NCBI GenBank assembly: GCA_021835845.1
Contig: JAKBJU010000007.1
Span: 9,559-73,558 of the forward strand
Direction of reading: 5' to 3'
From: Pseudomonadota bacterium
Lineage (GTDB): Bacteria; Pseudomonadota; Gammaproteobacteria; Burkholderiales; JABEVD01
DNA: 64,000 bases
Shown piece after piece: positions 31,732 to 42,280 of the stretch. A program made the translations under genes and the position numbers. Under the pieces are notes generated by a model. It was given only the letters and a program-made list of their open reading frames with translations. It was not told the DNA's origin and searched no databases. The first letter of the stretch is position 1; each line of letters begins with the position of its first letter.

Positions 31732-32721
31732 ATGAACCGCATCTGGAAAACCCTGCTGGTTTCCCTGCTGGTTTCCCTGCTGATTCACCTTCTGCTGCTG
31801 GGCCTTTTCCCCAGGACCACCTGGCCCGATTTCGGAAAACCATCCATCGTTCTGGATACCCGACTCGTCCCCCCGAAAAAACCGATCCACTTCAAGCCGA
31901 TCGTCCCGCCAAGACCCAAGGCTAGAAAGTCCGCAACAGCTGCCGCAAACAGCGCATCCGCTGGTTCGCCGCAACCCGTGAGTCTACCCAGGCCGGAGAG
32001 CGCCCCGCTGCCCGCAAGCATGCCAGTGCCTGAGAGCGCGCCCCAGGCGGCAAGCGCCCCGCAGCCCGAGCAGGAGGCCGGGGTGCCGAATCACGCCGTC
32101 CTGACTTTCAATGTATTCAGGGGCACCGTGCCCGTGGGAGTCGCAACCCATACCTGGGACATCATGGGCGATGGGCGCTATGCGATCACGAACAGGGTCG
32201 AAGCGGCAGGCATATTCGCCCTGTTCGTCAAGGGCGCCATGATCCAGACAAGCGAAGGCCGGGTCACCGAAAACGGACTCCAGCCGGAGCACTACACGAT
32301 CACCCGGGGAGGCGCGCAGAACCGGCAGGAAGCGCATTTCGACTGGAAAGCCATGAAGCTCGAACTCGTCGCCAACGGGACTTCCCGGGAAGCGAAGCTG
32401 GAGCCCCTGACCCAGGACCAGCTGAGTTTTCTCTACCAGTTCGCCTACACGCCCCCGAAGGCAGGCATTTTCAGCTTCCATTCGACTGATGGCCGGAAGA
32501 TCGATGTCTACGATTACCAAATCATCGGGGAGGAAACCGTTCTCGCAGGGACAAAAAAAATCAGGACGCTGCATCTGAAAAAATTGCACGATGCCGGAGT
32601 GGAAGGCACCGAGATATGGCTCGACGAAGACCATTACTACTGGCCGGTAGAAGTGCTGATGACGGACAGGAACGGCGACACGATGAGGCAGATGATCTCG
32701 AAAATCGAGGAAAACCGATGA
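31732..32721 (+). CDS. DUF3108-type membrane-anchored protein with Pro-rich linker
   Basis: N-terminal TM, Pro/Ala linker, QTSEG..GLQPEHY, QDQLS..YQ, TEIWL. Commonly found after purN. Confidence 0.8.
   Translation: MNRIWKTLLVSLLVSLLIHLLLLGLFPRTTWPDFGKPSIVLDTRLVPPKKPIHFKPIVPPRPKARKSATAAANSASAGSPQPVSLPRPESAPLPASMPVPESAPQAASAPQPEQEAGVPNHAVLTFNVFRGTVPVGVATHTWDIMGDGRYAITNRVEAAGIFALFVKGAMIQTSEGRVTENGLQPEHYTITRGGAQNRQEAHFDWKAMKLELVANGTSREAKLEPLTQDQLSFLYQFAYTPPKAGIFSFHSTDGRKIDVYDYQIIGEETVLAGTKKIRTLHLKKLHDAGVEGTEIWLDEDHYYWPVEVLMTDRNGDTMRQMISKIEENR
31751..31785 (+). repeat. 12-bp tandem repeat (CCCTGCTGGTTT x~3) in the N-terminal TM
   Basis: Directly visible; encodes LLVS-LLVS-LLI. Confidence 0.85.
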
Positions 32722-33908
32722 AGCAGGTGCCGAATCGTTCGATCCCGGAAATTTTCCTGATTTTTCTCGGGCTGGGGATTTCGTCTTTCGGCGGACCTGT
32801 CGCTCATCTCGGGTACTTCAGGCGCGAATTCGTCGAAAAGCGAAAATGGCTGACCGAGCAGGCCTATTCCGACCTGGTCTCGCTTTGCCAATTTCTGCCC
32901 GGGCCTGCCAGCAGCCAGGTCGGCATCGCCCTGGGGCTTTCGCGCGGCGCAATTCCCGGCGCAGTCGCGGCATGGCTCGGCTTCACCCTGCCTTCGGCCT
33001 TGCTGCTGGTGCTCTTCGGCCTGGGACTGCCTTTCCTTGGAGAAATCCACGGCAACGGCTGGCTGCACGGACTCAAGGTGGTGTCGGTCGCCGTGGTGGC
33101 CCAGGCGATCTGGATCATGGCAAAGCCTATCGCCCGGGATAGCCTGCGCATGGCCATCGTTCTCGCTTCGGCGGCAACGGCAACGCTCTTTCCTTCCTCC
33201 GCCGGACAGATCTGCGCCATCGCAGGCGGGGGGCTTGCCGGGCTCGCATTGCCCGGGGCCTCCATCCTCCCCCACAGCCCCTTGCGCACCGCAGTGGGCC
33301 GCACCACCGGAACGGCGCTGCTTTCGCTTTTTTTCATCCTGCTGCTTGCCCTGCCCTTCCTGGCGACAGAGTCCGGAAGCTACGGCATCAGGCTGTTCGC
33401 CAGCTTTTACCGCGCGGGCGCCATGGTTTTCGGCGGCGGGCATGTCGTGCTGCCGCTGCTCCAGTCCCAGGTAGTGCCGAGCGGCTGGGTTTCCAACGAT
33501 TCATTCCTCGCCGGATACGGGGCGGCCCAGGCTGTTCCCGGACCGCTTTTCACCTTCTCGGCCTATCTCGGCGCCGTCTCGTCGGGGTCGCCTTCCGGCT
33601 GGGTCGGCGCGGGTATCGCACTGGTTGCGATTTTCCTGCCCTCATTTCTGCTCGTCGTCGGAATCCTCCCCTTCTGGGAAGAATTGCGCCGCATCGAGGC
33701 GCTGCAGAAAGCCATGCCAGGAATCAACGCGGCAGTCGTGGGGCTGCTGCTCGCCGCGTTCTACAATCCGGTATGGAAAACCGCGATCCTGAGCGGCACG
33801 GATTTCTTCATGGCTGCCGCCGTCTTTCTGCTGCTGACATTCGGGAAAGTGCCGCCCTGGCTGATGGTGATATTCACGGCAGCCATTGCGGAAGCATTGA
33901 GTCGATAA
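32718..33908 (+). CDS. chrA: Chromate efflux transporter (long-chain CHR)
   Basis: SFGGPVAHLG, QFLPGPASSQ, FGGGHVVLP, AQAVPGP. Confidence 0.93.
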   Translation: MKQVPNRSIPEIFLIFLGLGISSFGGPVAHLGYFRREFVEKRKWLTEQAYSDLVSLCQFLPGPASSQVGIALGLSRGAIPGAVAAWLGFTLPSALLLVLFGLGLPFLGEIHGNGWLHGLKVVSVAVVAQAIWIMAKPIARDSLRMAIVLASAATATLFPSSAGQICAIAGGGLAGLALPGASILPHSPLRTAVGRTTGTALLSLFFILLLALPFLATESGSYGIRLFASFYRAGAMVFGGGHVVLPLLQSQVVPSGWVSNDSFLAGYGAAQAVPGPLFTFSAYLGAVSSGSPSGWVGAGIALVAIFLPSFLLVVGILPFWEELRRIEALQKAMPGINAAVVGLLLAAFYNPVWKTAILSGTDFFMAAAVFLLLTFGKVPPWLMVIFTAAIAEALSR

Positions 33909-33963
33909 GCGACGGCGCCACGGGGCTGCCGAGCGAAGCCCCCTCATCGGCCGAGTCCCGATC

Positions 33964-33992
33964 CTGTCACAAAACCATCACAATTCTTTCAC
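33964..33992 (+). promoter_or_regulatory. Putative Pho box (three 11-bp-phased half sites)
   Basis: CTGTCAC-AAAA-CCATCAC-AATT-CTTTCAC resembles the PhoB consensus CTGTCAT-A(A/T)A(T/A), about 75 bp upstream of the receptor ATG. Confidence 0.7.
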
Positions 33993-34066
33993 GTTGCCCT
34001 AATTCTGGCTGCGTAAATTTCGCCCCACAAATTGGTTTTCTGTCAATTCTCAAAAGGGAGACGTGA

Positions 34067-36238
34067 ATGAAAAAGGAATTCGGTTTCAGGAAGAAGCTTA
34101 TCGCTCAACTGGTTTTCGGCAGCCTTCTTGCGACAGGCAACGCCTTCGCGCAGGATGCGGTAAATCTGGGTACGGTGCAGAGCAACGCCGGTGACGGCGG
34201 CGTCACCGGTCCAGGCACGGCATCCTATGTCGCGCCCACCCAGGGTTCTCTGGTCGCAACCCAGCCCCAGTCGATCATCAGCCAGCAGTATATCCAGCAA
34301 AATGCTTCCGCCACTTCGAACTACACCGACATCATCAACATCGCACCCAGCGTCTACAGCATCGATCCGAACGGCCCGGGCATGATGGAATCCCAGTCCG
34401 GCGGTCCGTACATCCGGGGCTTCCACGACGGGCAGTACAACGTGACGTTCGACGGCATCCCCTGGGGCGACTCCAACGACTTCACGCACCATACCACGTC
34501 CTACTTCATGGCCCAGGATCTGGGTGGAATCACGGTCGACCGCGGTCCCGGCGATGCCAGCAATATCGGCTATGCCACCTTCGGCGGCACCATCGCAGTC
34601 CAGTCCAAGAATCCCATGGCTTCGACCAACTTCAATCTCTACGGAACTGTCGGCAGCTGGAACACCAGAATGATGGGCGGCGAGTTCGACACCGGCGTGA
34701 TGCAGAACTACGGAGACAGCGCCGCGTTCATCGACTACCGGAAAGTCCAGACCGACGGATACCTGACCAACTCCAATCAGAATCGCGGCAACCTGTTCGT
34801 CAAGTTCGTGAAGCCGGTTTCCGACAACACGCTCCTGACCTTCGTGACCATGCAGAACACCGTTCACCAGAACGTTCCTTACGGTGCGACGCTTTCGACC
34901 ATTGCGCAGTACGGCAAGAACTATGGACTGAGCGCCAATCCATTGAGCCAGGACTATTACGGCTACAACTATGATTCGATCAACTCGGATTTTGAATACA
35001 TCGGCCTGAACACCACCCAGGGCAACTGGAAGATCGACAACAAGCTCTACACCTATGCCTATTACCACAACGGCTATAACGGCATGAATGTCGGGATCAA
35101 CCAGCCCAATGGAACGATTTATGGTGCGAACAATGTGCCAGGCGGCGAAATGTACATGAACTATCGCTCCTGGGGCGACATCCTGAAGACTTCCTATGCC
35201 GTCGGCAAGGACAGCATCGATGTCGGCGCCTGGATGGACCGCCAGAACAACAACCGCGGGGCATGGAACACGGATGCGACGCTCGGCAACGCATTCGTCA
35301 GCTGGAATGGCGGCAGACTGATGACCGACTCGCTGACCACCATCCAGCCCTATGCGCAGTACGAGTGGAAGGCAACGGATGCCCTGACCGTCACGCCCGG
35401 GGTGAAGTACACATCCTTCACCAGGACCATCAATGCCCCCATAAACAATGGCGGCAATCCAGCCTACAACGGTAGCCAGACCTGGGGCAAGGCACTTCCC
35501 TCTCTCGATGCGCATTACATGATCCAGCCAAACTGGAGCGCCTACGCCCAGTATGCCCAAGGCTTCCTGGCGCCCAATCTCAATGTCTTCTCCACAGCCA
35601 ATGGCACCCCGCTGCCCAGCGAGCTGAATCCCGAGACGACGCAGAACTTCCAGCTCGGCACGACCTGGAAGAGCAAGCAGCTCACCGTCTCCGGAGACGT
35701 CTACAAGATCGACTTCACCAACCAGGCTCAGGGCATTGCGTGCGGCGCCTATACCTGCTACCAGAACACCGGCGGGGTGAAGTACAACGGCGTAGAGGGC
35801 GAGGCGACCTACGTGATTGGCGGAGGCTTCAGCCTCTACGGCAACTATGCCATCAACAACTACTCGATGAGCACGGCAGGCGCCTCTCTCTATGATGTGC
35901 CGAAAAACACGGCAACCGCAGGGGTGATCTACAACCAAGGTCCCGCCTACGCCTCCCTGATCGCCAAGGAAATCGGCAGCCGCTACGGCTTTGCGCAGGA
36001 TGCCAACGGCAACCCGATCCCTTTCTCGAGCTTCACGGTGACCAACTTCAGCTCCAGCTACGACTTCAAGGGACTCGGCGGATGGGGCAAGGATGTCAAG
36101 GTCGGATTCCAGATCAACAACATCTTCAACTACAACAACATCTACGACTCGGCCGCCAACGACTCGACGACCAATGCGCCGATGTACTTCGTGTATCCCG
36201 AGCGCAACTACGAGCTGACCCTTTCAATCGACATGTGA
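34067..36238 (+). CDS. TonB-dependent outer-membrane receptor
   Basis: Signal peptide, plug motifs (YIRGF, TFDGIP, VDRGPG...ATFGG), amphipathic strands, INNIFN...PERNY end. Followed by exbB-exbD-tonB. Confidence 0.95.
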   Translation: MKKEFGFRKKLIAQLVFGSLLATGNAFAQDAVNLGTVQSNAGDGGVTGPGTASYVAPTQGSLVATQPQSIISQQYIQQNASATSNYTDIINIAPSVYSIDPNGPGMMESQSGGPYIRGFHDGQYNVTFDGIPWGDSNDFTHHTTSYFMAQDLGGITVDRGPGDASNIGYATFGGTIAVQSKNPMASTNFNLYGTVGSWNTRMMGGEFDTGVMQNYGDSAAFIDYRKVQTDGYLTNSNQNRGNLFVKFVKPVSDNTLLTFVTMQNTVHQNVPYGATLSTIAQYGKNYGLSANPLSQDYYGYNYDSINSDFEYIGLNTTQGNWKIDNKLYTYAYYHNGYNGMNVGINQPNGTIYGANNVPGGEMYMNYRSWGDILKTSYAVGKDSIDVGAWMDRQNNNRGAWNTDATLGNAFVSWNGGRLMTDSLTTIQPYAQYEWKATDALTVTPGVKYTSFTRTINAPINNGGNPAYNGSQTWGKALPSLDAHYMIQPNWSAYAQYAQGFLAPNLNVFSTANGTPLPSELNPETTQNFQLGTTWKSKQLTVSGDVYKIDFTNQAQGIACGAYTCYQNTGGVKYNGVEGEATYVIGGGFSLYGNYAINNYSMSTAGASLYDVPKNTATAGVIYNQGPAYASLIAKEIGSRYGFAQDANGNPIPFSSFTVTNFSSSYDFKGLGGWGKDVKVGFQINNIFNYNNIYDSAANDSTTNAPMYFVYPERNYELTLSIDM

Positions 36239-36246
36239 GAACCTGA

Positions 36247-36924
36247 ATGAATATCGAGACATTTCAACATGTGGCCGAATCTTCCGGCGGGATCATCTAC
36301 CTGATGGGGCTGCTGCTTCTGGTAGCCCTGACGGTAGCCATCGAACGCAGCTGGTATCTCTGGAAGGTAATCACGCAGGGCAAGCAGGTCATGTCCCAGC
36401 TCGAAGCGGCGTCGAAAGTAGAGCATCAAACGCTGGAGCATCTGGGAGAAAGCTTTTCCCAGCTGCCCCATGCCAGGGTGCTGACGGTCGCTTTGCAGCA
36501 TGACCTCAACCATGACTTCGAACGGATTTCAGACAAGCTGGAGGAATCCATCATGAGAGAGGCCCCCGGAATCGACCGCCACCTCTGGGTACTGGACACG
36601 ATCGTGACCATGGCGCCGCTGCTCGGATTGCTCGGCACCATCATCGGCATGTTCAACGCCTTCCAGGTGCTGGGAGACCCAGGCAATGCCCCGACCAAGG
36701 TGACAGGGGGTGTGGCCGAGGCATTGCTCGCCACCGCTTCGGGCCTCTTCATCGCAATCCTGGGCCTGTTCTTCTTCAACGCACTGAGCAACCGGGTGCG
36801 GGTCATCATGCATCAGCTCGAAACGCTGAAAGTGATGCTGGTGAACCGCATGTATCCGCATTACCACGACGCCCCGAAAAGGAATGGCAAGACCATTTCC
36901 GAAATCAGATCGCAGGCAGCCTAG
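36247..36924 (+). CDS. exbB: ExbB/MotA/TolQ proton channel
   Basis: APLLGLLGTIIGM, GVAEALLATASGL. Confidence 0.92.
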   Translation: MNIETFQHVAESSGGIIYLMGLLLLVALTVAIERSWYLWKVITQGKQVMSQLEAASKVEHQTLEHLGESFSQLPHARVLTVALQHDLNHDFERISDKLEESIMREAPGIDRHLWVLDTIVTMAPLLGLLGTIIGMFNAFQVLGDPGNAPTKVTGGVAEALLATASGLFIAILGLFFFNALSNRVRVIMHQLETLKVMLVNRMYPHYHDAPKRNGKTISEIRSQAA

Positions 36925-36925
36925 C

Positions 36926-37312
36926 ATGAAATATTTCGAAACCAAGAAGGCCAGGATAGAGATCATCCCCATGATCGACATCATGTTCTTCCTGCTGGTC
37001 TTCTTCATCATGATCACGCTGCACATGATCCCCTCTTCGGGGATCCCATCCAGCCTTTCCAAAAGCTCGACCGCCACGCCGCTCAACCAGCCCAAAGTGG
37101 TTCTGAGCGTCGATGGGCAGGGAAACATCGGCTTCGACGGCAGAACGGTCGGTCCGTCCGAACTGACCGCCATGCTGCAGCAGAAGGGCCCCAATACCGT
37201 CGTCACCATAGCGGGAGCGAAGGACACTTCGCTCCAGCATCTGATGGCGGTGATGGACGCATGCCGCGCCGCAGGGGTCACCCAGATCGGGCTGGCAGCC
37301 CGCAAAGAGTAG
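36926..37312 (+). CDS. exbD: ExbD biopolymer transport protein
   Basis: IEIIPMIDIMFFLLVFF. Confidence 0.92.
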   Translation: MKYFETKKARIEIIPMIDIMFFLLVFFIMITLHMIPSSGIPSSLSKSSTATPLNQPKVVLSVDGQGNIGFDGRTVGPSELTAMLQQKGPNTVVTIAGAKDTSLQHLMAVMDACRAAGVTQIGLAARKE

Positions 37313-37319
37313 GGCGATC

Positions 37320-37949
37320 ATGAGGTTCGCACTTTCCAGATCAGCCCTGATCGCGCTCGCGCTAGAAATCCTGATCATCGCAGTTTTTGCCATGGCCCTG
37401 GAGCGGCATCCCGCCCAGAAAGAACCCGAGCAGCCCCCAGTCATGCTGACCTTCCCTGCGCCTCCCGAGCCGCCCAAGCAGGAGAAGCCGCCCAAGCAGG
37501 AGAAGCCGGTTTCCAGGCCCAAGCCCGTGCATCACCAGCAACCCAGACCGGATCCCGTACAGCAGCCGAAGATCGCCGATGCTGCGCCTTCGCCGACCCA
37601 GGCACCGGCATTGCCGCCCGACCCGCCCAAGGTCGAGAGTCCCGCCCCGGCACCGGACATCACGGCATCCTTCCGCAGCGCCGTAAAGGCCTCGGTACAG
37701 GCTGCGGTGCGTTACCCATATGCCGCAAGGATGGCGCATGTCTCAGGAAAGGCTCTGGTTTCCTTCTCCTACCATGACGGCACGGCAAGCCATGTGTCGA
37801 TCATCGCATCCAGCGGCTATGCCATGCTCGACAATGCCGCAAGGCAGGCTGTCGAAACAGCTTCCTATCCCCCTCCGCCTCCCGATCTGGCCGGAAGAAC
37901 CTTGCAGTTCCAGGTATGGGTGCGATTCAACCAGAACCAGGCGCAGTAA
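37320..37949 (+). CDS. tonB: TonB energy transducer
   Basis: N-terminal TM, Pro-rich linker, RYP..AR...SG, SSG..LD.AA. Confidence 0.9.
   Translation: MRFALSRSALIALALEILIIAVFAMALERHPAQKEPEQPPVMLTFPAPPEPPKQEKPPKQEKPVSRPKPVHHQQPRPDPVQQPKIADAAPSPTQAPALPPDPPKVESPAPAPDITASFRSAVKASVQAAVRYPYAARMAHVSGKALVSFSYHDGTASHVSIIASSGYAMLDNAARQAVETASYPPPPPDLAGRTLQFQVWVRFNQNQAQ
37468..37508 (+). repeat. 18-bp tandem duplication in the TonB linker (PPKQEK x2)
   Basis: AGCCGCCCAAGCAGGAGA occurs twice in exact tandem. Confidence 0.85.
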
Positions 37950-37950
37950 C

Positions 37951-39300
37951 ATGAAGTATCTGATGCCGATCTTCGCGCTCCTGGCTGCGGCATCTTTCCG
38001 GACGGCAGACGCAAGTCCGCAGGACAGGATCTACGCGGCCTATGTGCTGCTCGGGAACAACGGACAGGGCATTGCCCGGGTCATAACCGATGCGCCGGCC
38101 TGCCCGGACGTGAGATTCGACGGGAAGCCGGAAAGAATGCAGCTCAGGGCCTCCCCTGCAGACGTTCCGGCACGCCCCGGCTCGCTCAAGGATGCAAAGT
38201 TTCCCGTGCTGGTCTGCGAAGCGAAATTGCCGGTCCATGTCGGACATGTCAGCATCGCAGGAAAGGCGCTGCCCGTTCCCAGAAGAAATCCGCAGCGCAT
38301 CGTCGTCATCGGGGATACGGGTTGCCGCATGAACCAGTCGGAGCACGCCTTCCAGTCCTGCACCGATCCGGAAAAATGGGCGTTCCGGCAGATCAGCGCG
38401 GCAGCCGCAGCCTTCAAGCCCGATCTCGTGATCCATGTCGGCGACTACCTTTACCGGGAAAGCCCCTGCCCGAAAGGAGCGGACGGGTGCACAGGCAGCC
38501 CGTGGGGCTACGGATTCGACTCGTGGCAAGCCGATTTCTTCGATCCCGCAAAACGGCTCCTTGCGGCTGCCCCATGGGTCATGGTGCGCGGCAACCACGA
38601 ATCCTGCATTCGCGCAGGCCAGGGATGGTTCCGCTTTCTCGATACGCAACCCTTTGCTCCATCGAGATCCTGTGACAATCCCGAAAACGATGCCCGGGGA
38701 GACTTCAGCGAACCCTACGCGGTGCCGATCGCTGGCGATACGCAACTGATCGTGTTCGATTCGTCGAAAGCCGCCAGTTCGGCATACTCTCCCGAAGACG
38801 GCGCCTATCAGCGCTACCTGTCCCAGTTCCGCAAAGTGGATGCACTGGCCGGCAGGATGCCGCACAGCTTCTTCCTCAGCCATCATCCGGTGCTTGCTTA
38901 CGCTCAGGAGAACGAGACGACCCAGCCCGGAAATCGTGCCCTGCAATCCGTCATGCAGGCGCTTCACCCGGCACGCCTCTTTTCGCCCGGCATCGATGCA
39001 GCGTTTCACGGCCATGTCCATCTTTTCGAGGCGCTCGACTTTTCTGACGATCACCCCGCCACTGTAGTGACCGGAAATTCCGGAACTGCAACCGACCATC
39101 CGCTCCCGAAAACACTGCCCGAAGGCGAACAGCCGGCTCCGGGGGCAATGGTGAGCCGAATCGTTTCGGATTCGGAGGTCGGCTTTCTCACCATCGAGCG
39201 CACCGGCAAACAATGGCTGATAACCGAACGAAACCGCTACGGCAAACCGCAGGTGCGCTGCACCCTGCGCGGCCAGTCCCTGCTTTGTGCCAGACTGTAG
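37951..39300 (+). CDS. Secreted calcineurin-like metallophosphoesterase with purple-acid-phosphatase motifs
   Basis: Signal peptide (..RTADA/S), GDTG, GDYLY, GNHE, SHHP, GHVH. Confidence 0.88.
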   Translation: MKYLMPIFALLAAASFRTADASPQDRIYAAYVLLGNNGQGIARVITDAPACPDVRFDGKPERMQLRASPADVPARPGSLKDAKFPVLVCEAKLPVHVGHVSIAGKALPVPRRNPQRIVVIGDTGCRMNQSEHAFQSCTDPEKWAFRQISAAAAAFKPDLVIHVGDYLYRESPCPKGADGCTGSPWGYGFDSWQADFFDPAKRLLAAAPWVMVRGNHESCIRAGQGWFRFLDTQPFAPSRSCDNPENDARGDFSEPYAVPIAGDTQLIVFDSSKAASSAYSPEDGAYQRYLSQFRKVDALAGRMPHSFFLSHHPVLAYAQENETTQPGNRALQSVMQALHPARLFSPGIDAAFHGHVHLFEALDFSDDHPATVVTGNSGTATDHPLPKTLPEGEQPAPGAMVSRIVSDSEVGFLTIERTGKQWLITERNRYGKPQVRCTLRGQSLLCARL

Positions 39301-39349
39301 CCAAATGGCGCTCGACTTGCTCTGCTTCATGGTAGGATAAGGACCCTCA

Positions 39350-40018
39350 ATGGAGCTGAATATGCGCGTCCTGATTGTCGAAGACGATCCCATGATCGGC
39401 CGGAATCTCGCCCTGGCGCTGAAGGAAGCCGGCCTGATCGCGGACTGGGTTCAGGACGGCATCCAGGGGCTGGAGGCTGCCAAAACCGGGCATTATGCCG
39501 TGGTTCTGCTCGATCTGGGATTGCCCCGGAAATCCGGAACGGACGTGCTGAAATCGATGCGTGACAGCGGGATCGACACGCCGCTCCTCATTGTCACCGC
39601 AAGGGACGGCATCGATGATCGCGTCGAAGGGCTGGATCTTGGCGCCGACGATTATCTCATCAAGCCTTTCAGCTTCAAGGAACTGCTGGCAAGGATACGC
39701 GCGATCCTGCGCAGGCAGGGGGGGCACGCCGCATCGCTCATCGGCAACGGTGAAATCACCCTCAACCTGGCATCCCACGAGGCCACCTACCGGGGCAAGA
39801 CCCTGGCCCTTTCGGCCAAGGAATTCGCACTGCTGCACACCCTCGTCGCCCATCCCGGAACGATCTATTCGCGCAGTCAGATCGAGGAGCATATCTACGG
39901 ATGGGGCGAGGAAGTCGAAAGCAATGTCGTCGACGTAATCATCCATTACTTGCGCAGGAAATTCGACAGCGAAATCATCCGCAATGTGCGCGGCATCGGC
40001 TGGATGGTGGTGAAATGA
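39350..40018 (+). CDS. OmpR-family response regulator (QseB/PmrA-like)
   Basis: VEDD, LLDLGLP, GADDYLIKPF, winged helix RNVRGIG. Alternative start at 39362. Confidence 0.94.
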   Translation: MELNMRVLIVEDDPMIGRNLALALKEAGLIADWVQDGIQGLEAAKTGHYAVVLLDLGLPRKSGTDVLKSMRDSGIDTPLLIVTARDGIDDRVEGLDLGADDYLIKPFSFKELLARIRAILRRQGGHAASLIGNGEITLNLASHEATYRGKTLALSAKEFALLHTLVAHPGTIYSRSQIEEHIYGWGEEVESNVVDVIIHYLRRKFDSEIIRNVRGIGWMVVK

Positions 40019-41355
40019 ACTCCCTGAAGAAGCAGCTCATCATTCTGCTGGTCGGACTGCTGAGCATAGTCGGCATGCTCGCCGGCAGCATTTCCTACAT
40101 GCTCGCAAAGAACGACGCCGGCGAATTGCTCGACCATCAGATGCGCGAGGTCGCCCGGAGCATCGACGAAGGCTCACAGCTTCCCGCGATGCAGGCCAGA
40201 TTCTTCTCCGAAACCGAGGAAGAACGGGAAAGCGATTTCGTCATCCAGTCGTGGTATGAAAGTGAACCGGTCAAGTCATCCCGGCCCGGTTTCATCTTGC
40301 CCAGGGAAAACAAGACCGGGTTTTCCGACCTCACGATGCATGGCAAGAAATGGCGAACCTATACCATCATCTACCCCGATCGCACCGTGCAGGTTTCCCT
40401 GTCAGGGGACGTCCGCCGGGAAATCGCTACCGCTGCCGCCCTGCGTTCGGTATTGCCCATAGCCGGGCTGATCCCGCTTTCCTGGATTCTCGTGGCCGTG
40501 GTTGTCGGGCGCATCCTCAAACCGCTGGACGCCGTCACGGCGGCCGCGACCCAGCGGGATGCTTCGAGCCTCGACCCATTGCCTGCCGAAAACATCCCGC
40601 AGGAAATCGCTCCCCTGATCGCAGAAATGAATGCCCTGCTGCTGCGTCTCGGGGATGCGCTCGAATCGCAGCGCCAGTTCGTGTCGAATGCCGCGCATGA
40701 ACTGCGCACGCCGCTCGCCGCACTTCAGCTGCAGATCGAGAATCTTTACCTTTGCCAGTCCCGGGAGGACATGGATGCCCGCATCGGGGAATTGAAAGCC
40801 GGCGTTCACCGCGCTTCCCACCTCGTCAACCAGCTGCTGAGAATGGCTCGCTTCGAAGCGGAAAATGCGCCTTCCAGGCATAATGCCGATCTCGGCCAGA
40901 TCGTAAAAGCCTGCATCGGCAGCCTCATTCCGCTTGCCGAAAAAAAGGGCATAGACCTAGGCATGGTGCGCGACGAGACGGTCGTCATTCAGGCAAATTC
41001 GGATGCATTGCGCATCCTGTTCGACAATCTCATCGACAACGCCATACGCTATACGCCGTCCAATGGCAGGATCGACGTCAGCGTGATTTCGGCAGGGAAA
41101 AAGGCTTATGTGGAAATCGCCGACAACGGCCCCGGCATCCCAGAGCATCTGCTGCCGCGCGTCTTCGACCGTTTTTTCAGGGCGAGCGGCCAAGTGATCG
41201 AAGGGAGCGGCATCGGGCTTGCCATCGTGAAGGCGATAGCGGACCGGGAATCAGCCGAAGTCACCCTGTCCAACAGGACAGACGGGACCGGTCTGATTGC
41301 GAAGGTCGCGCTTTCGATGCCCTTGAGGTCGGACAGAAAGAATGGAGTCCAATGA
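40015..41355 (+). CDS. Sensor histidine kinase (QseC/PmrB-like); the last ~10 codons come from an IS end
   Basis: Two TMs, AAHELRTPL, NLIDNAIRY, DNGPGI, GSGIGL. Confidence 0.93.
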   Translation: MNSLKKQLIILLVGLLSIVGMLAGSISYMLAKNDAGELLDHQMREVARSIDEGSQLPAMQARFFSETEEERESDFVIQSWYESEPVKSSRPGFILPRENKTGFSDLTMHGKKWRTYTIIYPDRTVQVSLSGDVRREIATAAALRSVLPIAGLIPLSWILVAVVVGRILKPLDAVTAAATQRDASSLDPLPAENIPQEIAPLIAEMNALLLRLGDALESQRQFVSNAAHELRTPLAALQLQIENLYLCQSREDMDARIGELKAGVHRASHLVNQLLRMARFEAENAPSRHNADLGQIVKACIGSLIPLAEKKGIDLGMVRDETVVIQANSDALRILFDNLIDNAIRYTPSNGRIDVSVISAGKKAYVEIADNGPGIPEHLLPRVFDRFFRASGQVIEGSGIGLAIVKAIADRESAEVTLSNRTDGTGLIAKVALSMPLRSDRKNGVQ

Positions 41356-41367
41356 TTCTGTAAAATG
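41324..41367 (+). repeat. Orphan IS3-family left-end (IRL) fragment
   Basis: TGAGGTCGGACAGAAAGAATGGAGTCCAATGATTCTGTAAAATG is nearly identical to the reverse complement of 42599-42641. Confidence 0.85.
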
Positions 41368-41405
41368 AGAGGTGAGGTCGGACGGATTTCATGGAGTCCA
41401 ACGGG

Positions 41406-42280
41406 TTAAGCGGCGACCAGGTTTTCATAGTAACGCCGCATGAAGGCAGCGGGTGACAGGTAGCCAAGGCGAGCCTGCTTCCGTTGCCGATTATAGAAGA
41501 CTCGATGTACTCCGCGATCTCCTGTTTTGCTTCTTCCCGGGTGGCATAGCGCCGATGATGCACGAGCTCGGTTTTCAGGGTTCCCCAGAAGCTTTCCATC
41601 GGCGCATTATCCCAGCAGTCCCCTTTGCGACTCATGGAAAGTTTCATGCCGAATTGCTTGGCCAGCTTCCGGTAATCATGGGAGCAATATTGGCTGCCCC
41701 GATCCGAATGAAGAATCAGCCCCTTCTCCGGCCGCCTGGCGGAGGCTGCCCGGAACAATGCCTGCATCACCAGTTTCCTGCACATCCGCGCTCCCATCGC
41801 ATGACCGACAAGCTCACCGCTGTAGAGATCCTTCAGTCCGGCAAGGTATAGCCAGCCCTCATCAGTGGCAATATAGGTCAGGTCCCCAACCCACGCACGA
41901 TTCGGCGCGGGCACCCTGAAGTTCCGCTCAAGCAGGTTCGGGGCAACTGGAAGATTGTGCTTCGAATCAGTTGTCGCCTTGAACTTGCGCTTCTGCTTGC
42001 AGCGCAGGCCGAGTTTACTGCGTATACGCTTGATGCGATGAATTCCGATCTCGATGCCATGATCGGCGAGATCTTGCTGCAGGCGCTCAGGGCCACAGGT
42101 TTCCCTTGTCCGGATATGCGCAGCCTTCACTTCCAACTCCAGTCGCGCCGCTTCCTGAGCCCTCGACGACGGCGGGCGATTCCGCCAGGCATGGTAGCCG
42201 CTTTCTGATACCGACAGCGCCCGACACATCAGCGATACCGGATACTCTGGTCGCATGGATTCAATCTGGGCGTATCTCAC
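41406..42280 (-). pseudogene. IS3 transposase OrfB (DDE) with a 1-bp deletion near the C-terminus
   Basis: WVGDLTYI, HSDRGSQY, DNAPMESF. After IAEYIE the conserved FYNRQR...LGYLSP continues in another frame (break near 41500) to TAA at 41406. Confidence 0.85.

Follow-up and report, generated by a model that had tools for sequence, protein, structure and literature searches.

A TonB-dependent receptor operon with a purple-acid-phosphatase-like enzyme and a predicted PhoB-type promoter in a Burkholderiales bacterium

We analyzed a 64,000-nucleotide stretch of DNA (the window) from a Pseudomonadota bacterium of the order Burkholderiales (GenBank assembly GCA_021835845.1, contig JAKBJU010000007.1, positions 9,559 to 73,558), in which genes for a TonB-dependent receptor, a TonB motor and a phosphatase-like enzyme follow a set of phased repeats. 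An original prediction, made from the letters of the window, had described five tightly packed, co-oriented genes with gaps of 1 to 8 bp, and the listing of open reading frames (ORFs) and Pfam agree with it. The five genes lie on the plus strand at 34067-39300, with intergenic gaps of 8, 1, 7, and 1 bp. The first encodes a TonB-dependent outer-membrane receptor of 723 amino acids (aa) (34067..36238; Pfam Plug, 7.7e-09, and TonB_dep_Rec_b-barrel, 8.5e-37) and is followed by genes for an ExbB proton-channel subunit of 225 aa (36247..36924; MotA_ExbB, 4.5e-32), an ExbD of 128 aa when read from the ATG at 36926 (36926..37312; ExbD, 6.3e-27) and a TonB of 209 aa whose translation shows a proline-rich linker (37320..37949; TonB_C, 8.6e-13). 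The string ends with a gene for a putatively secreted, two-domain metallophosphoesterase of 449 aa resembling purple acid phosphatases (PAPs) (37951..39300; Metallophos, 4.7e-15). All five Pfam families were found above their cut-offs, which places the string among TonB-dependent transport systems. The G+C content of the window is about 59%, and the locus shows no compositional break. A simple terminator scan, whose count of sites was not above that in shuffled sequence, found no terminator-like site in any gap between the genes of the locus, which is weak support for a single transcript.

Upstream of the receptor gene we found three 7-bp repeats in 11-bp phase, CTGTCAC (33964-33970), CCATCAC (33975-33981), and CTTTCAC (33986-33992), separated by the spacers AAAA and AATT. 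These three had already been noticed in the original prediction; a footprint alignment of orthologous promoters added a degenerate fourth half-site, CCCTAAT (33997-34003, assigned by eye on that alignment), and a candidate -10 hexamer, TAAATT, on the plus strand (34014..34019), 10 nt past the last half-site and with no -35 element; the hexamer, too, was assigned by eye. The four half-sites can be read as two tandem Pho boxes (33964..34003, plus strand). In Escherichia coli, a PhoB promoter has 7-bp direct repeats arranged in tandem with an 11-bp phase; they stand in for the -35 element, and about 10 bp separate their end from the -10 element. The receptor promoter has the same architecture, with phased repeats, no -35, and the expected spacing to the -10, and a consensus scan of the region before the receptor gene detected no -35/-10 pair of the sigma-70 type. 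Using consensus sequences taken from general knowledge, we searched the whole window and found no Fur box with 3 or fewer mismatches and no PmrA-type box with 1 or none; at 33850-34100, the closest resemblance to a Fur box was 11/19. The locus thus lacks the Fur box of a Fur-regulated iron-uptake receptor locus, as the first reading of the sequence had suggested.

For the footprint we used 165 nt of sequence before the receptor gene, from this genome and from six orthologous loci, with receptor identities from 97% to 58%. In the seven promoters the distal flanks could not be aligned, and the repeats, CCTAA(G/T), and CGTA.ATT formed the sole conserved block, invariant or nearly so; the columns CGTA.ATT were invariant in 7/7. 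We then scored the repeats against CTGTCAY in 11-bp phase, which is the Pho half-site of E. coli as generally known. The promoter in the window reached 18/21 over three repeats, and scores of 18 or more occurred as 3 hits at 2 places in 2.2 Mb, compared with one hit, in one of five shuffles, in shuffled genomes.

Lowering the threshold to at least 17/21 gave 6 hits at 5 places genome-wide, 4 of which lay 35 to 75 nt upstream of co-oriented genes. These are the receptor gene of the window, a pair of Acetyltransf_5 and Acyltransferase genes, a gene for a secreted Zn_dep_PLPC protein, and a pair encoding a GT4 glycosyltransferase and a PAP2 phosphatase; no such site was found at the two other receptor genes of the genome. 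Ornithine-lipid synthesis, phospholipase C, and glycosyltransferase/PAP2 functions belong to the classical remodeling of membrane lipids under phosphate starvation. The genome also carries a pstS gene and a PhoB orthologue (C31:8168-8845; TIGR02154, 360.2 bits, cut-off 296.2).

The highest-scoring site of the genome (19/21; C24:104035-104075) lies on the contig of the window, past its end, and consists of four phased half-sites located 44 nt before the Acetyltransf_5 (OlsB-like) and Acyltransferase (OlsA-like) pair, which is of the ornithine-lipid type. At C11:23377-26078, two convergent units each stand behind a 17/21 site, the secreted zinc phospholipase C on the plus strand and the glycosyltransferase and PAP2 genes on the minus strand, and the region looks like a compact lipid-remodeling locus. 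Upstream of the receptor promoter in the window, a gene for the chromate transporter ChrA (TIGR00937, 330.9 bits; 32616-33908, plus strand) stops 55 nt short of the Pho boxes. The position of this gene is retained in one related contig (listed as both L036 and L071), and upstream of the receptor of another locus, L037, only the first 49 ChrA residues match.

The search for Pho-like boxes upstream of homologous receptors, which had been proposed as a check, showed that they recur. Two-repeat matches of at least 12/14 were present upstream of 18/34 receptor homologues, compared with 9/4000 background windows from the same loci, and three-repeat matches of at least 16/21 likewise upstream of 18/34, compared with 8/4000. 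At the threshold of 12/14, matches were found upstream of the enzyme gene in 3/114 cases and upstream of ExbB in 0/14. A receptor search gave 20 further loci, 8 of whose promoters scored at least 16/21. Since the box sequences vary among genera, they are not merely an inherited flank.

We next considered the enzyme, which had been called PAP-like from its sequence, a name that its metal ligands and its modeled fold uphold. The hallmark of PAPs is a set of five motifs, DxG, GDxxY, GNH(D/E), VxxH, and GHxH, which supply seven metal ligands (D, D, Y, N, H, H, H). The enzyme carries GDTG, GDYLY, GNHE, SHH, and GHVH, which can be aligned to the motifs of the wheat PAP 6gja, and D122, D165, Y168, N215, H216, H311, H312, H355, and H357 were invariant in 30/30 aligned sequences, so that the seven PAP ligands are all in place. 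Ten cysteines were also invariant in this alignment, which fits an exported protein, and many of the homologues had lipoprotein-like signals, as judged by eye.

An AF2 model of the enzyme (predicted local distance difference test, pLDDT, 90.9) was compared with known structures. PAPs and phytases headed the Foldseek ranking (E 4.5e-15), and VIA-align superimposed the model (residues 23-446) on the kidney bean PAP (chain residues 23-432) with a Z of 27.6 and a root mean square deviation of 3.0 over 341 aligned residues. This alignment covered both the N-terminal beta-sandwich and the catalytic domain, as in two-domain PAPs, while one-domain mammalian PAPs aligned from residue 112 onward only. 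The enzyme thus resembles the kidney bean PAP (6hwr/2qfp) and the wheat purple acid phytase (6giz; Z 24.3) in the fold of both domains and in the seven ligands, including the tyrosine, and differs from the plant PAPs in being only about 16% identical to them in sequence and in belonging to a family with ten invariant cysteines. At the sequence level, no PAP-specific family was matched: Pfam returned only the general PF00149 (E <=0.001), NCBIfam returned 0 families, and phmmer against PAPs of the PDB gave just an E of 0.38. Because this sequence link is weak, we call the enzyme PAP-like rather than a member of a curated family, and describe it from its model as a predicted plant-type, two-domain PAP-like metallophosphoesterase. 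It belongs to a large family (E <=0.001 for 5812 of the 8000 candidates scored, mostly from Burkholderiales), whose members are named in the sources only "metallophosphoesterase" or "hypothetical."

Among solved structures, the nearest relatives of the receptor were only YncD/PqqU (E 2.4e-07). PqqU was also the sole NCBIfam hit; it scored 53 bits where the cut-off is 1200, and this identity was rejected. In a protein atlas the receptor fell into generic "TonB-dependent receptor" clusters only, and a cluster look-up returned no informative names. The presence of a TonB motor of its own, as first proposed, is borne out by the ExbB-ExbD-TonB genes of the string, but such a motor is not special in this genome, since a second receptor is also found beside its own ExbB and TonB-C genes. 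The genome totals three receptors and three TonB-C proteins. The second cluster (C8:49853-52910, minus strand) has no Pho-like site of at least 17/21 nearby.

To determine how often the enzyme and the receptor occur together, we turned to related genomes. A class-level search found the enzyme in only 3/401 genomes, which was too thin a sample, and an order-level search was used instead, in which 32/401 evenly drawn genomes had the enzyme. From this sample we took 34 enzyme loci, and a set of 80 came from named genome contigs, one of which (L071) is the contig of a locus already among the 34. Homologous receptor and/or Ton genes were chained to the enzyme in 9/34 and 28/80 loci, respectively; the complete five-gene string was present in 3/34, and receptor, ExbB, and ExbD together in 8/80. 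The loci with the full string include that of Actimicrobium antarcticum (L073), and in many Undibacterium species the enzyme gene is followed by the receptor gene. In 400 genomes of the order, the enzyme was found in 19/28 genomes with the receptor and in 12/372 without it (our own tally).

The partner of the receptor is not always the PAP-like enzyme. With Pfam run on 18 ORFs selected from the 20 further receptor loci, a phosphoesterase of a different family, with a signal-like N terminus, occupied the same-strand partner slot in 7/20. PF01663 is the family of type I phosphodiesterases/nucleotide pyrophosphatases (NPPs). In three of the loci (L181 and L182, from sister species of the same genus, and L183), receptor, ExbB, ExbD, and TonB are followed by an NPP of 480 to 497 aa with a signal-like N terminus, and in L185 the NPP gene is next to that of the receptor. 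The receptor is followed by a small Metallophos lipoprotein in L196 and L198 and paired with a PAP2 protein in L200. The recurrence of receptor-phosphoesterase synteny that had been asked for is thus found, with the receptor as the conserved core and the phosphoesterase as the cassette.

Downstream of the enzyme gene, after 49 bases in which the scan found no terminator-like site, lies a two-component pair. Its first gene encodes an OmpR-family response regulator of the PmrA/QseB-like type (39350..40018, plus strand; Response_reg and Trans_reg_C), which stayed below the curated cut-offs for PmrA (221.5 bits; cut-off 330) and QseB (214.1 bits; cut-off 345). The second encodes a QseC/PmrB-like sensor histidine kinase (40015..41355, plus strand; HisKA and HATPase_c; QseC, 217.7 bits; cut-off 475), and its ATG at 40015 overlaps the stop codon of the regulator gene. 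Two hydrophobic membrane segments of the kinase flank a predicted periplasmic domain, about 110 aa long, that contains an acidic stretch, ETEEERE (encoded within 40100-40450), reminiscent of the ExxE metal-sensing motifs of PmrB. An IS-type transposase gene (HTH_21 and rve integrase core; 41261-42280) on the opposite, minus strand overlaps the 3' end of the kinase ORF.

Regulator or kinase homologues with at least 45% identity adjoin 4/34 enzyme loci, and one or the other stands beside the receptor in 9/20 further loci (L181-L185, L187, L189, L197, and L200), where the arrangement varies between upstream, downstream, and divergent. The pair is thus adjacent to the receptor gene in the manner of receptors controlled by a neighboring two-component system of the PfeRS/PirRS type. 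The original view of a self-contained locus is incomplete, in that this pair, which the original prediction had missed and which is receptor-linked in relatives, follows 49 bases on. The recognition helix of the local regulator is unlike that of PhoB at most positions; PhoB is therefore the better candidate for repeats of the TGTCA type, and we think that the local pair may add a second input beside it.

Taken together, these data make it probable, as far as sequence can tell, that the locus is a PhoB-activated phosphorus-scavenging operon. We infer the import of a bulky phosphorus compound, its hydrolysis in the periplasm, and induction at low phosphate, and likewise the binding of PhoB, the location of the enzyme, the identity of the substrate, and the part played by the two-component system. 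Under phosphate limitation, phosphorylated PhoB would occupy the two tandem Pho boxes in place of a -35 element and recruit RNA polymerase to the TAAATT -10 hexamer. The resulting transcript would encode the receptor, the ExbB-ExbD-TonB motor, and the Sec-exported PAP-like enzyme, and probably the two-component pair as well. The receptor would then import a phosphorylated compound for which porins would not suffice, because of its size or its scarcity, the enzyme would free orthophosphate from it in the periplasm, and Pst would take this up. The PmrA/QseB-like sensor pair may provide a second layer of control, specific for a substrate or a metal. As a broader and more tentative proposal, which we consider possible and short of likely, Pho-box-driven receptors would form a fixed core throughout the Burkholderiales, combined with an interchangeable phosphoesterase (plant-type PAP, NPP, PAP2, or small metallophosphoesterase lipoprotein) and gated doubly, by PhoB for phosphorus need and by the sensor pair for the presence of substrate.

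Several observations weigh against a PhoB-activated phosphorus operon. No receptor or Ton gene was linked to the enzyme in 25/34 and 52/80 enzyme loci, including all listed Burkholderia, and the linkage of the two-component pair to the receptor is no less faithful than that of the enzyme. Paralogous receptor-ExbBD-TonB clusters (L189, L194, and L197) have a cytochrome b561 gene after TonB and no phosphoesterase, and the promoter of L194 is nevertheless similar, with the repeat and CCTAAG. At L038, a distant locus with full synteny, the box is no more than weak (14/21 by eye). Two-repeat matches of 12/14 are not above chance genome-wide, with 23 in the real genome and 36, 31, and 47 in three shuffles, and the phoB and pstS promoters of the same genome reach just 10/14 against the consensus used. 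Binding to phased direct repeats is a general trait of OmpR-family regulators. A search of sequencing runs listed no RNA data set that contains the locus, and the three metatranscriptome runs shown had next to none of its sequence words. Signal peptides and lipoboxes, including the signal-like N terminus of the enzyme, were judged by eye, and the loci and genomes counted are phylogenetically related, so that the counts overstate their independence.

Some of these points bear on other explanations of the locus. The repeats might bind the adjacent PmrA/QseB-like regulator instead of PhoB, in which case the operon would answer to the signal of the cognate kinase. That OmpR-family proteins bind direct repeats is established, and this idea is in line with the regulator or kinase homologues adjoining 4/34 enzyme loci and 9/20 further receptor loci, and with the promoter of L194, which serves a paralogous cluster without a phosphoesterase. 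We nevertheless regard it as improbable, given the recognition helix of the regulator, the presence of the same type of repeat before the genes for ornithine-lipid synthesis, phospholipase C, and the glycosyltransferase, none of which is linked to the locus, and the strong canonical boxes of loci (for example L082, L088, L104, L114, and L133) that have no homologue of the pair (at least 45% identity) within 9 kb. Even less probable, in our judgment, is that enzyme and receptor are co-expressed and act on different molecules, the enzyme being, for example, released outside the cell to produce orthophosphate while the receptor imports something unrelated. Most enzyme loci do lack a linked receptor, and the lipoprotein-like signals seen by eye in many homologues could mean a location at the cell surface, but the 1-bp gap at this locus, the recurrence of the linkage across genera, the various secreted phosphoesterases that fill the same slot, and the co-occurrence in genomes (19/28 versus 12/372) argue against separate roles.

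The remaining alternative is a module for metal, in which the receptor would import ferric-phosphate or ferric-organophosphate, the phosphatase would free the metal or make a phosphate chelator, and the PmrB-like kinase would sense Fe(III) or Al(III). Just this idea was proposed from in silico data for Acidithiobacillus and Leptospirillum (Osorio et al. 2008, PMC2631029). The QseC/PmrB-like nature of the kinase with its acidic periplasmic ETEEERE and the label "mine drainage metagenome" carried by the sequencing runs listed would suit it as well, and the cytochrome b561 of the paralogous clusters, together with a PepSY protein that we found in L194 and L197 (L197 also has a MOSC protein), keeps a metal or redox reading alive. 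On the other hand, the window scan found no Fur box, and the promoter resembles the sites before lipid-remodeling genes of the same genome. Mine drainage is generally rich in soluble iron and poor in phosphate, and four types of phosphoesterase as partner suit the release of phosphorus better than that of a metal. We therefore consider an iron module unlikely, and favor the PhoB-activated phosphorus operon.

Phosphorus scavenging of this kind has parallels in described systems. The Pus loci of Flavobacterium johnsoniae combine a TonB-dependent transporter with phosphomono- and diesterases and are induced by phosphate depletion (Lidbury et al. 2021, PMC8115612), and for them, too, import followed by periplasmic hydrolysis has been proposed. 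There, the transporters are SusC/SusD pairs of Bacteroidota, whereas here a classical receptor comes with a PAP-like enzyme, an ExbBD-TonB set of its own, and a Pho box of the proteobacterial type, and no SusD-type Pfam match was found among the genes at 34067-41355, which sets the locus apart from SusCD-type (PUL/Pus) systems. Induction was measured for the Pus loci and is predicted for the present one. The locus works like a Pus locus without belonging to the SusCD-type class of Bacteroidota.

The clusters of Acidithiobacillus and Leptospirillum (Osorio et al. 2008, PMC2631029) contain a receptor, ExbBD-TonB, a surface-layer protein, PhoD or AcpA, and regulators resembling PhoB. They share with our locus the combination of receptor, motor, secreted phosphatase, and OmpR-family regulator, the setting in acid mine water, and evidence that is in silico only; they differ in having PhoD or AcpA, predicted Fur sites, and a reading as phosphate-assisted iron uptake, compared with a PAP-like enzyme, a Pho box, and no Fur box found here. 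The PhoB regulon of Caulobacter crescentus includes TonB-dependent receptors, for which a role in the transport of alternative phosphate donors has been suggested (Billini et al. 2024, PMC11208175). That work is transcriptomic and, unlike the locus described here, comes without a dedicated enzyme partner, or a defined substrate, in the part of it accessible to us. In Pseudomonas aeruginosa, phdA-pdtB-exbB2D2-tonB4 contains an ExbB-ExbD-TonB set that is expressed under phosphate starvation in a PhoB-dependent manner (Quesada et al. 2016, PMC4971064); unlike the present locus, it is driven via the sigma factor VreI, is linked to two-partner secretion, and has no receptor-phosphatase pair.

For the linked sensor pair, PfeS/PfeR-PfeA offers an analogy. 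It is an OmpR/EnvZ-type pair beside a TonB-dependent receptor gene, in which a global starvation regulator, Fur, is combined with a local sensor of the ligand, ferric enterobactin. By comparison, PhoB would take the place of Fur as the global signal at our locus, and the local pair would presumably act as the sensor.

A literature search found no description of the receptor family, of the PAP-like family, or of their linkage, although supplements of the Caulobacter and Flavobacterium studies may list homologous receptors. New, in that none of them appeared in the literature search, are the receptor family and its PAP-like partner of the plant type, together with the conserved promoter, the interchangeable slot for the enzyme, and the linked sensor pair. 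Phosphate-regulated TonB-dependent transporters have been reported in several bacteria, with the substrate left undefined in the portions of that literature at hand, and the locus pairs such a receptor family with a recognizable enzyme slot and a clean promoter. Since there are cultured carriers (Actimicrobium antarcticum with the full string and several Undibacterium with the enzyme-receptor pair), the transported cargo is directly testable. If the broader proposal of a receptor core with interchangeable phosphoesterases is correct, working it out would define, for the first time, a substrate with phosphorus for a TonB-dependent transporter, and would give a function to an uncharacterized bacterial PAP family of more than 5800 members. 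The locus also provides a first functional context for this large two-domain PAP-like family, which curated models leave unnamed. Ferric minerals scavenge the phosphate of iron-rich acid mine water, and a system of this kind could play a central part in supplying phosphorus there.

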